A stretch of 2,860 bases of DNA from Escherichia coli (GCF_003334785.1 NZ_QOWV01000055.1), one strand, 5' to 3'; shown: positions 959-2,765, numbered from the stretch's first letter. Numbers and translations are program-made. Notes: generated by a model from the sequence alone, not told the origin.

Positions 959-986
959 TTGACAGACAGGCTACATTGCATACGAT
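959..986 (+). promoter_or_regulatory. Candidate sigma70-like promoter (TTGACA-N16-TACGAT)
   Basis: Perfect -35 hexamer TTGACA at 959-964, a 16-nt spacer, then TACGAT at 981-986 (4 of 6 matches to TATAAT). Prediction by eye only; -10-like hexamers are common by chance. Confidence 0.3.
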
Positions 987-1049
987 TTATGAAGAAAAAG
1001 ACAGCAAATATGGAGGTTATAGCGGAGAATACCCTACGAAATTCCTATG

Positions 1050-1100
1050 AAAAACGATTGAAAAAAATATCAAATTCGATTCGTTTTTATATGCTTTTTG
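1050..1100 (+). terminator. Weak candidate terminator-like hairpin (AT-rich stem, possibly bidirectional)
   Basis: AAAAACGA (1050-1057) pairs with TCGTTTTT (1081-1088), giving an 8-bp stem with a 23-nt loop, followed by ATATGCTTTTTGG. Only 2 of the 8 pairs are GC and the loop is large, so this is weak. Confidence 0.2.
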
Positions 1101-1319: not shown

Positions 1320-1540
1320 GAGAAGTTTACGGGATGTGTATCCGGCACACTATGACCGGAGAATATCAGTCAAGCTTAAAAAGACAATAAATACAGTGAG
1401 TTAAATACACAGAGAAAACGTAGTATCAGAGGGTACATCTTACAACAGAGACTGAATTTCCGGTTTTTCATAACCGGCGCATTCCGGAAAGTGCAGGCGG
1501 CCCGGAGGTTTTCTGACGCCACTACCTGGTAGATTGTTCT

Positions 1541-1601: not shown

Positions 1602-2765
1602 GTGAGGTGTATTGTGGGAAAGGAACTGGATGATATCTGCACCAGCTGTCCGTATATCGATGCTGTAAAACGGCACAAACAACAGCTCGGTGCCATAGAG
1701 GAATATACACAGTGGTTAAAAAAAGAACCACGGGCATCTTATTTTTTTCTGTTCCAGCTGTATACCCGCATTCACAATACATTTTTCTCCCAAAAGCAAC
1801 AACTCCCGTTCACTCCCGGTGGCACTCACTGCCCGGAACCTGATGTCACCCTTCGGGACTTAACGCTTTCCCCTGGCTACCACAGTGATTATGCCCCTCA
1901 ACCCATTCCGGAGATGGACAGTTCTGCTGTTGTTCCACCAACTAATGAAAACACCTCGCCTCCGGAAGATACTCCCGACAACACTCCGGCCGGAGGCAAT
2001 ACCGGACAAGCGGAAAAGACCAGAAACGCAGGACTCACACCCATTCCTGAAAAACGTTCAGGAATGCCCCCGGAACATCTGCGGTTTGCCACGGGGTTTC
2101 CATCGCAACCGAAGATTGCCGGTCCCAGAGAAAAGCCGATGCGCACCGTGCATCCGGATAAAATCTACCGTGAAATTATATGGTTCTGCTCCAGTTACCT
2201 GCTGAAATCCGGACCAGAGGCTACGAGGACGATTATCAACTCAGTATTCTCTGAATGGGCCAGCATAAACAATGATTACCCCTCCCCCTTTTCGTGGGTG
2301 GACAGCAGGGACAGTGAACAGTGTGACTGGTTATGGAACGCCATGCAGGTCCGGTGTGTGGGAACCCCGCTGAATCCCCTTACCCCGGAGCAGAAATACT
2401 GGTTTGCCTGCGCCACGTTTGATAACTGGGAGGGCTGGAATGAGCAACAGGTACAGTTTTTACTGGAAAGTAATCCCAGACGGAACAGAGCGAAGTTTAC
2501 GCAGGTCTCCTTCCAGGCCCCCAGGATTCAGCATAAAGCGATTCTTCTTGATGAGCTGAAAAGTGCCCGGGAGCAACAAAAAAGGCGTGATGAACGTGCT
2601 GATGGTTCCGTCCCTCTGAAACTGTCCGGAAAAATCCACAAACAGCTTGAAAGTATTGCCCGAAGTCGTGGTGTCCTCCCAAAAAAACTGCTGAATGAAA
2701 TGATTGAGCAGGCGTACCATGATTTGGTGGCAACCAGGCAGAACAGCCAAATCGATTCCAGATAA
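1602..2765 (+). CDS. Hypothetical protein, 387 aa (383 aa if the GTG at 1614 is the true start). By eye it has four parts: an N-terminal segment with a CxxC motif, a Pro/Thr/Asn-rich low-complexity linker, a Trp-rich central region, and a C-terminal ribbon-helix-helix-like motif. Family not recognised.
   Basis: Longest ORF in the window (1164 nt), stop TAA at 2763-2765, with a strong intrinsic terminator about 30 nt downstream. The sequence reads like a real protein rather than an off-frame translation. The frame opens after TGA 1590-1592; there is no in-frame ATG before codon 105 (1914), so a GTG start is inferred. GAGGT at 1604-1608 lies 5 nt before the GTG at 1614. Low-complexity linker roughly aa 91-186 (nt ~1872-2159). 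Trp-rich region aa ~190-300 (8 Trp, 4 Cys). C-terminal aa ~336-375 (nt ~2607-2726), SVPLKLSGKIHKQLESIARSRGVLPKKLLNEMIEQAYHDL, fits a strand / helix / Gly turn / helix pattern. Confidence 0.75.
   Translation: MRCIVGKELDDICTSCPYIDAVKRHKQQLGAIEEYTQWLKKEPRASYFFLFQLYTRIHNTFFSQKQQLPFTPGGTHCPEPDVTLRDLTLSPGYHSDYAPQPIPEMDSSAVVPPTNENTSPPEDTPDNTPAGGNTGQAEKTRNAGLTPIPEKRSGMPPEHLRFATGFPSQPKIAGPREKPMRTVHPDKIYREIIWFCSSYLLKSGPEATRTIINSVFSEWASINNDYPSPFSWVDSRDSEQCDWLWNAMQVRCVGTPLNPLTPEQKYWFACATFDNWEGWNEQQVQFLLESNPRRNRAKFTQVSFQAPRIQHKAILLDELKSAREQQKRRDERADGSVPLKLSGKIHKQLESIARSRGVLPKKLLNEMIEQAYHDLVATRQNSQIDSR
1604..1608 (+). promoter_or_regulatory. Putative Shine-Dalgarno (GAGGT) for the GTG at 1614
   Basis: GAGGT matches the core of the AGGAGGU consensus and sits 5 nt upstream of the in-frame GTG at 1614. 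The GTG at 1602, which the ORF track uses, has no SD at a workable spacing. Confidence 0.3.

Follow-up and report, generated by a model that had tools for sequence, protein, structure and literature searches.

H-NS nucleates at phased A-tract curved regions of horizontally acquired DNA, and curvature alone does not require a sequence-specific box. At R1 parC, 11-bp iterons flank a promoter and are bound by ParR, and the DNA is AT-rich and curved (PMC2241845). At TP228 parH/OF, degenerate boxes with AT-rich spacers are bound by ParG, and both the degeneracy and the orientation of the boxes are tolerated (PMC3130281). Pathogenic E. coli also have sRNAs encoded on islands; one of them, Esr41, comes from OI-43/48 (PMC8565820, PMC5286369), where its gene maps between z1181 and z1182, and its 3′ end is a GC-rich palindrome with a long poly(U) (PMC8565820).

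Here, we analyze a stretch of 2,860 nt of Escherichia coli DNA (hereafter, “the window” refers to this whole stretch), for which a preliminary description had read a promoter, a hairpin and a T-run between positions 959 and 1100 as a possible sRNA gene of ~100 nt, with a small Cys-rich protein as the alternative. Our analysis shows that the hairpin and the T-run belong to an array of six phased 11-bp units upstream of a gene for a 383-aa orphan protein. The array exists and is phased, and distant island families share its type, its strand and its association with the gene. It appears to be undescribed so far and is an element of a familiar kind.

The resemblance to parC and parH is an architectural analogy, not a demonstrated membership. 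Direct repeats of about one helical turn and a conserved association with a downstream operon, two of the features by which a parC/parH-type site would be recognized, are both found here. Like R1 parC, the array consists of tandem 11-bp repeats, five or six in a row, in AT-rich and probably curved DNA beside a (here candidate) operon promoter. However, the two have no sequence similarity, and whereas two sets of iterons flank the parC promoter, a single set of about six degenerate units follows the candidate promoter here; no ParM or ParR genes are present and the binder is putative. With TP228 parH/OF the array shares short degenerate boxes and regular AT-rich spacers, which extend over ~100 bp upstream of the genes that are, or here would be, regulated, and the tolerance of the ParG boxes for degeneracy matches an array in which only the first two boxes are well conserved. 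The dimensions differ (5-bp YTAYG boxes with spacers of 5-6 bp, versus 4-bp ACTC boxes with spacers of 4 bp at parH/OF), there is no ParF or ParG here, and an operator/centromere role is putative for the array. Phased A-tract curved DNA and H-NS nucleation regions resemble the array too, in being rich in A+T, in having A/T tracts in phase with the helix and in lying upstream of island genes; the array differs from them in adding a sequence- and strand-specific YTAYG box that is conserved across families.

The window and its genomic island

The window is identical to a stretch of the chromosome of E. coli AR434 and sits in a CP4-44-type genomic island adjoining tmaR(yeeX)-yeeA. Strain EC958 is another carrier, with the region at NZ_HG941718.1 2,254,942-2,255,362. 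CP4-44/CP4-57-type islands occur in a large share of E. coli genomes, with Ag43 adhesins, CbtA-type toxins and YeeP-type GTPases as cargo, and we know of no described control of their rightward operon. The local order is alpA, a gene for a 200-aa protein, IS21/IS100 debris, a gene-free gap of ~1.1 kb, the 383-aa gene and a YeeP-type GTPase gene, which in intact islands is followed next by Ag43. A Rep-like gene (REP_ORF2-G2P or YagK_YfjJ) lies ~6.5 kb from the array. The island holds many pseudogenes and IS remnants; an IS21-family remnant occupies the window's first ~565 nt, and in it the IstB C-terminus ends at position 483. In the PGAP annotation, positions 900-1320 are blank in nearly every RefSeq genome that has the segment.

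Positions 520-1620 were found in 2,093 of 5,426 complete E. coli genomes (about 39%), always at 90% identity or more and almost only in chromosomes. Three records in the plasmid collections match (two from E. coli, one from K. pneumoniae), all with the island segment, and the phage collections hold no record matching the window. From ~880 onward, the non-coding stretch and the 383-aa gene form a single co-inherited module with a common divergence history, unlike positions 300-900, which are 10-30% diverged.

To describe variation within E. coli, we used 68 good-quality copies, representing 37 haplotypes over positions 900-1330. These copies came from complete genomes, from protein-anchored look-ups and from one metagenome scan seeded on the 24-mer at 1123-1146, which was masked in later statistics. 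Three ENA contigs (L008, L017 and L018) were indel-rich and noisy and were left out of the population analysis; a divergent copy, L012, is 80.5% identical overall (~20% diverged). The 37 haplotypes are visibly recombinant mosaics; recombination among them is frequent, and 24% of sites are variable overall. Among close copies, the non-coding positions 900-1613 diverge by 2.0-4.2%, versus a pS of 3.4-4.8% for the adjacent gene. We therefore do not claim extra constraint on 900-1613, whose divergence in these copies is about the synonymous divergence of the neighbouring gene. The stretch 879-1228 has a higher identity in L012 than elsewhere, a difference that is inseparable from the frequent mosaic recombination.

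A phased 11-bp array upstream of the 383-aa gene

The array, its core, the gene to its right and the terminator of that gene are located as follows:

1034-1099, + strand: six phased 11-bp units, CTACGAAATTC / CTATGAAAAAC / GATTGAAAAAA / ATATCAAATTC / GATTCGTTTTT(A) / TATGCTTTTTG
1034-1049, + strand: conserved core of the array, CTACG-N6-CTATG, matching the pattern YTAYG-N5-7-YTAYG
1614-2765, + strand: gene for the 383-aa orphan protein, whose homologues always lie between a copy of the array on the upstream side and a gene for a YeeP-type GTPase on the downstream side
2795-2819, + strand: strong intrinsic terminator that follows the 383-aa gene (-16.5 kcal/mol, z -3.5)

Each unit of the array is a YTAYG-like box plus an A/T tract of 5-6 bp. 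The tracts start at 1039, 1050, 1061, 1072, 1084 and 1095, and the whole array takes up 66 bp. The period-11 self-match here is the best of the whole window and is significant (z 3.8), with the best segment starting at 1033/1034; TRF made no call on the array, the units of which are degenerate. Its inner units are among the most variable sites in the E. coli copies, and the second box reads CTGTG in a common haplotype. Copies with this CTGTG haplotype are mostly without the 5′ end of the 383-aa gene and form a single lineage; we rejected “intact motif goes with intact gene” as a line of evidence, since it reflects that one lineage.

The 383-aa protein has no match in Pfam, NCBIfam or PDB, and its AF2 model is confident for residues 181-383 only, all of them helical. 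The GTDB species representatives contained no match to close-relative patterns of the protein or to a 24-mer from the conserved core, and a scan of IMG/VR with the 383-aa family profile returned one truncated locus, which was unusable. A HMMER search identified distant relatives of about 350-380 aa, 22-36% identical to the protein, in a family of at least 61 cluster representatives. At every distant locus, the homologue stands between ~500-630 nt of gene-free DNA on its upstream side and a YeeP-type GTPase gene on its downstream side; beyond the gene-free DNA lies a variable leftward block with AlpA, Gp2/Rep-like and YagK/YfjJ-like genes. BLAST of the distant upstream regions against the window gave no detectable DNA similarity.

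In six independent families, the pattern YTAYG-N5-7-YTAYG occurs once per locus, on the gene's strand only and in the upstream gene-free region only. The pattern has no second occurrence in these loci (3.5-9 kb each) or elsewhere in the window, and for AT-rich DNA the empirical background amounts to 0.046 occurrences per 550 nt. An 8-mer, ACCCTACG, is common to four of the six families, and in the window and the six other loci alike, self-similarity is highest at a period of exactly 11 (P≤0.017). The regular expression was defined after seeing the data, which is mitigated by a held-out model test with rough E-values. A model made from the five distant arrays only has its top match at window positions 1027-1098 (ungapped, 72 positions, 20.3 bits, E about 6e-6 by a rough calibration), and the same model finds the L012 equivalent at E about 1e-4, again roughly calibrated.

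The distance from the array to the start codon is 130-175 nt in five distant families, the leftward neighbours differ between loci, and the distance from the array to the leftward block ranges from 343 to 505 nt. The tight spacing on one side and the changing neighbours on the other tie the array to the rightward gene. In the window and in L012, the array stands 580-600 nt from the gene, with ~450 nt of lineage-specific sequence between them, so the window's array may be a displaced or vestigial copy. Some loci have A-tracts as spacers and others have T-tracts, with the orientation of the boxes unchanged, and the array has no conserved reading frame.

Promoter candidate, hairpin and small reading frames

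The elements that made up the preliminary description, and the sites of variation within them, are:

959-986, + strand: sigma-70-type promoter candidate (TTGACA 959-964, 16-nt spacer, TACGAT 981-986), with a predicted start at ~993
1050-1088, no strand assigned: inverted repeat previously described as a hairpin, made of array units 2-3 (A5-CGATTG) and unit 5 (CGATTCG-T5)
1061-1067, no strand assigned: A-run polymorphic in length and sequence (A7, A8, A6CG, A6TT, A6CC)
1095-1099, no strand assigned: T-run previously taken for a terminator tail, polymorphic in length (T4 to T7 among copies)
989-1219, + strand: 76-codon ORF from ATG 989 (86 codons from TTG 959), frame not conserved
1112-1219, + strand: previously described 35-codon ORF (ATG 1112, TAA 1217-1219), intact in 67 of 68 copies

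Both hexamers and the 16-nt spacer of the promoter lie exactly where they had been placed, with 10 of 12 matches to the sigma-70 hexamers. The match alone is within chance: a match of at least 10/12 arises in 38% of dinucleotide-shuffled windows, and in 13% if only the + strand of 900-1613 is considered, and the promoter scan found 2 promoter-like sites versus 3.4 expected. Variation among copies speaks for the site. Across the 68 copies (37 haplotypes), the hexamers are variable at none of their 12 positions, versus 6 of 16 in the spacer (Fisher p=0.021); against the variable fraction of sites overall, the invariance of the hexamers has a p of about 0.035. The spacer is 16 nt long in all 68 copies, and the candidate is intact in the divergent L012. 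Because the hexamers and their spacing are invariant while the bases of the spacer vary, it is plausible that 959-986 is a real sigma-70 promoter, and we take the conservation of the hexamers as modest but genuine support for a functional one. Promoter-like sites are present in the distant loci too, none of them aligned with the window's 959-986; in one distant locus (L014), the sole such site is downstream of the array. In the window, the array begins ~41 nt past the predicted start site and ~48 nt downstream of the promoter candidate.

The inverted repeat is also where it had been reported, followed by T-rich sequence: it has 13 pairs, a 12-nt loop and 3 G-C pairs, and TTTTTATATGCTTTTT comes next. 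Its proposed role as a terminator is not supported by closer inspection. Units 2-3 and unit 5 of the array make up the arms of the hairpin, and unit 6 supplies the T-run; the first T5 (1084-1088) already serves as the stem's 3′ arm, and ATATGCTTTTT comes after it. The fold amounts to -8.1 to -8.3 kcal/mol (z -1.3 to -1.5) and is matched by 13-22 of 200 shuffles, and as DNA it amounts to -6.3 kcal/mol (z -0.6). The terminator at 2795-2819, our internal yardstick, reaches -16.5 kcal/mol (z -3.5). The terminator scan of the window made no call at 1050-1088. Intrinsic terminators combine a G+C-rich stem of ~5-14 bp, a loop of 3-8 nt and substantial stability, a combination that 1050-1088 does not have.

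The hairpin is variable at 12 of 39 sites, above the average of the region, and indels fall in its 5′ arm (the A-run), its loop and its 3′ arm, as well as in the T-run. Covariation, which the preliminary description had named as a check on the structure, is absent from the stem: 12 of 13 pairs never vary and there are no compensatory changes, while G1083A breaks a C-G pair in one whole lineage and a 5-nt deletion in another lineage removes 3 stem pairs. The whole “sRNA” (993-1100, 108 nt) folds no better than shuffles on either strand (z -1.1). A search of Rfam 15 on both strands at E≤1 found no match in the window, and our search of the literature on this locus (sequences, accessions, yeeP/Ag43 TSS data and EC958 transcript maps) found nothing usable. 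The hairpin at 1050-1088 is not a credible terminator. A change of spacer type along the array, from A-tracts to T-tracts, creates the apparent stem, and we judge the hairpin and the T-run to be incidental by-products of this switch. With the terminator unsupported, the sRNA of ~100 nt is unsupported as well. For genome scanning, this is a caution that a repeat array switching from A-tracts to T-tracts mimics the “hairpin plus T-run” of a terminator.

The start, the stop and the upstream GGGAG of the 35-codon ORF are present in the window as described, but the ORF had been mis-delimited: it is the 3′ part of the 76-codon ORF from ATG 989, which spans the hairpin and the T-run. ATG 989 has no Shine-Dalgarno sequence and precedes the point where the transcript is predicted to begin. 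The GGGAG Shine-Dalgarno sequence 7 nt upstream of ATG 1112 occurs in no more than 8 of 68 copies (GGGAA in 30, GGGCA in 29). Conservation of the frame, also named as a check, gives a divided result. The ATG and stop of the 35-codon ORF are kept in 67 of 68 copies, L012 included, whereas frameshifts or stops, from at least 8 different events, disrupt the 76-codon ORF in 14 of 68 copies (12 of 37 haplotypes). One of the alleles of the A-run, +1 A, shifts the frame of the 76-codon ORF and is annotated by PGAP as a 79-aa CDS; this allele and the -5 deletion each fuse the N-terminal part of the ORF to another frame. We rejected the fused 79-aa ORF as a real gene, its variants being 2 synonymous versus 15 non-synonymous.

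Variants within the 35-codon ORF are 7 synonymous to 10 non-synonymous. In the 989/1112 frame, 18 of 47 variants are synonymous, versus 8 of 47 in each other + frame, an excess with P=0.07 under a spectrum-preserving null (0.13 for any frame); a minus-strand frame with the same wobble position scores 19. The first 21 codons of the 35-codon ORF are perfectly identical with L012 over 63 nt, with zero synonymous differences. The region is T-poor, so several frames are open by composition, one minus-strand frame included. Public ORF calls hop across all three frames, and gene callers report the 76-aa ORF on more than 1000 contigs. Family scans of the 383-aa protein and of every ORF of ~70 aa or more in the gap gave no NCBIfam or Pfam match and only insignificant PHROG matches (E>0.05). 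All relatives of the small ORF come from the same locus, with none found beyond this E. coli locus, and the distant loci have no counterpart of it. Long ORFs in several frames are what T-poor sequence yields, and calls of sRNAs or small genes in such regions need comparative data.

Interpretation of the proposed control region

We consider the chances about even that 959-1100 is a DNA-level, operator-like array together with a promoter, in the control region of the operon of the 383-aa gene and the GTPase. The candidate sigma-70 promoter at 959-986 would fire rightward. With one 11-bp unit per helical turn, the boxes would lie on one face of the duplex, and the array would act as double-stranded DNA, as a cooperative binding site (operator) that is probably intrinsically curved. 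Its putative binder, an island-encoded or nucleoid protein, would set the expression of the rightward operon, in a mode resembling that of the ribbon-helix-helix proteins that coat the tandem repeats at R1 parC or TP228 parH/OF. We infer promoter firing, protein binding and the identity of the binder, as well as action at the DNA level, the last because an exchange of A- and T-tracts is neutral for the duplex but not for RNA, because no frame is conserved, and because there is no stable or covarying RNA fold. Against this explanation stand the lack of alignment between the promoter-like sites of the distant loci and that of the window, a divergence of the region about as fast as that of the neighbour's synonymous sites, the high variability of the inner units and the CTGTG haplotype.

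More tentatively, and with well under an even chance, the array could be the operator/centromere-like site of a new family of regulators, namely the orphan proteins of 350-390 aa encoded immediately downstream. If this is true, an orphan regulator controls the YeeP/YfjP-type GTPase operon in CP4-type integrative islands across Enterobacteriaceae, with the 959-986 promoter as its target, and in many islands Ag43 and CbtA-type genes would be controlled also. The array and the orphan gene provide a concrete handle on the regulation of CP4-type islands, in the form of a candidate site and a candidate binder.

Other explanations read the same sequence as RNA or protein. An independent sRNA of ~100 nt, starting from the 959-986 promoter and terminating at the hairpin and T-run, would draw on the invariant hexamers, on a hairpin and T-rich sequence that do exist, and on the precedent of Esr41, an Hfq-dependent sRNA of OI-43/48 in EHEC, which it would resemble as a short intergenic transcript of a horizontally acquired island (PMC8565820, PMC5286369). 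The GC-rich palindrome and long poly(U) of Esr41 are, however, both missing at 1050-1100, and the island sRNAs Esr41/EcOnc were ruled out as the identity of this element by their different locus and GC-rich terminator. Given a stem of -8 kcal/mol that the terminator scan does not call, a U5 that belongs to the stem and not to a tail, the variable positions, indels and length-variable T-run, a stem pair broken in a whole lineage where covariation should have been, the unremarkable fold of the transcript, the lack of an Rfam match, and the fact that the same sequence is explained as DNA repeat units whose A- and T-tracts are swapped between loci, we regard such an sRNA as extremely improbable. 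The array could also work within a longer RNA, as part of a long 5′ leader of the 383-aa gene in which the repeats, hairpin and U-run form a pause site, an attenuator or a platform for an RNA-binding protein. It lies downstream of the predicted start, if the promoter fires, it always has the same orientation as the gene, and further terminator-like hairpins occur at 1283-1300 and 1537-1557 (z about -2.2). We nonetheless find a leader improbable, as the tract swaps between families alter the RNA completely and the duplex not, no conserved or stable RNA structure is present, and in L014 the sole promoter-like site is downstream of the array. A small protein, either the 76-aa product of 989-1219 or the Cys-rich 35-aa product of 1112-1219, with the two ORFs possibly coupled via an ATGA overlap made by +2 T-run alleles, is a weak alternative and a distinctly unlikely one. 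The near-complete retention of the 35-codon ORF, the synonymous enrichment and the many calls of the 76-aa ORF are consistent with it. They are offset by the recurrent disruption of the 76-codon frame, the hopping of ORF calls, the openness of several frames by composition, a synonymous excess that is marginal and exceeded on the minus strand, the poor translation signals at both ATGs, the lack of family matches, of homologues beyond the locus and of an ORF in the distant loci, the blank annotation by PGAP in nearly all RefSeq genomes, and an identity with L012 that is free of the synonymous changes expected of a coding region.

Two further explanations remain. In one, the region has no specific function: it is AT-rich, curved, acquired DNA in a decaying island, in which the hexamers are spurious and silenced (e.g., by H-NS) and the repeats are a by-product of composition or slippage. 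An island full of pseudogenes and IS remnants, a promoter match within chance, a divergence close to the synonymous level, frequent recombination among haplotypes, the lack of a TRF repeat and the variability of the inner units all fit this account. It does not predict that five other families whose upstream DNA is unalignable would share the YTAYG core along with its 11-bp phase, its strand and its association with the gene, nor that the hexamers would be invariant next to a variable spacer (p about 0.02-0.035), and we consider it unlikely. In the other, the array is not an operator but an iteron-like origin or a centromere-like site of the excised island, used by the leftward Rep-like protein of the Gp2/YagK-YfjJ type. 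Phased short direct repeats beside AT-rich DNA would suit such a site, a REP_ORF2-G2P or YagK_YfjJ gene is present in every distant leftward block as well as in the window's island, and the parC and parH arrays are centromeres as well as operators (PMC2241845, PMC3130281). However, it is the distance to the rightward gene that is tight, versus the looser one to the leftward block, where the gene order varies. When rearrangement in the window's lineage separated the array from the Rep-like gene, the array remained with the rightward gene, and its surroundings showed no gene for a partition ATPase or an actin-like protein. We consider an origin or centromere very improbable.

Besides the operator-like array at 1034-1099, the array model has a weaker match further along the gap, in inverted orientation:

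1380-1425, - strand: weak second match to the array model, reading ACTACGTTTTCTCTGTG on the minus strand (12 bits, E about 0.0025 by a rough calibration)

This weaker match falls within a block that has 90-96% conservation in L012 and in which a GAAAAC copy-number variant occurs.

Divergence boundary and recombinant history

The left end of the window is an insertion sequence remnant common to all copies of the module, in which the IstB C-terminus encoded by the istB fragment ends at 483; over 3,000 plasmid records contain IS21 sequence that matches positions 78-514 (~88%). Farther right lies a sharp boundary: to its left the copies differ by 10-30%, and to its right a single low-divergence history is common to the non-coding leader and the gene for a 383-aa protein. 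The haplotypes, i.e., the E. coli variants of the region, are recombinant mosaics.

Features of the window and of two distant island loci
1-565: IS21/IS100-family remnant with istA and istB fragments
880-900: sharp divergence boundary
1283-1310: small hairpin (-8 kcal/mol, z -2.2), TGCGCT-N6-AGTGCA and then T5
1380-1425, minus strand: weaker, inverted second match to the array model (ACTACGTTTTCTCTGTG)
1537-1580: terminator-like hairpin (-12.8 kcal/mol, z -2.3), with palindrome TGTACATCATGTACG and then GGAGGTTTTTGTTTGCTTTTTT
1614-2765, plus strand: gene for the 383-aa protein, of an uncharacterised family
L087 ~2313-2325 and L088 ~1561-1573: additional shared motif AACTCATTGATT, in two distant families

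Compared with L012, a diverged E. coli copy with an overall identity of only ~80%, the window is perfectly identical over the 63 nt from 1112 to 1174, where the 35-codon ORF has its first 21 codons. Recombination, constraint at the nucleotide level or chance could account for the run.

Elements around the main array

The model built from the arrays of five distant island loci has its weaker second match within a block conserved at 90-96% in L012, where haplotypes have either one or two copies of a 6-nt unit, GAAAAC. This match could be a partner site for the main array (six phased 11-bp units), ~390 bp away.

Two hairpins lie between the array and the 383-aa gene. The smaller varies across E. 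coli haplotypes in its loop only, its stem being invariant. The terminator-like hairpin is only ~40-75 nt upstream of the gene start. Several haplotypes have a duplication of a 9-nt unit, TTCTGTACA, in this stretch (1537-1580); the T-rich part is similar to distal units of the array in L087 and recurs at window positions 1001-1018 and 1083-1099 (repeat search, D12/D13).

In L087 and L088, AACTCATTGATT lies ~42 nt upstream of the array, and a third family, represented by L089, carries the related TCTCAATGATT upstream of its own; a motif of the L087/L088 type is absent from the window.

The 383-aa protein and its distribution

At E<=0.001 the protein family comprises 61 cluster representatives; it has no match in Pfam, NCBIfam or PDB, and its gene is always followed by a YeeP/YfjP-type GTPase gene. 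The core of the protein is Trp-rich and invariant (ATFDNWxGW), residues 60-149 form a disordered segment, and the C-terminus is possibly RHH-like.

The window also occurs, at 99.9% identity, in a 1.04-Mb Klebsiella pneumoniae "plasmid" record (NZ_CP079635.1; plasmid match H2). This is an odd location because the element is otherwise found almost wholly on E. coli chromosomes; the record may be misassigned or chimeric, or the element may have been transferred recently.
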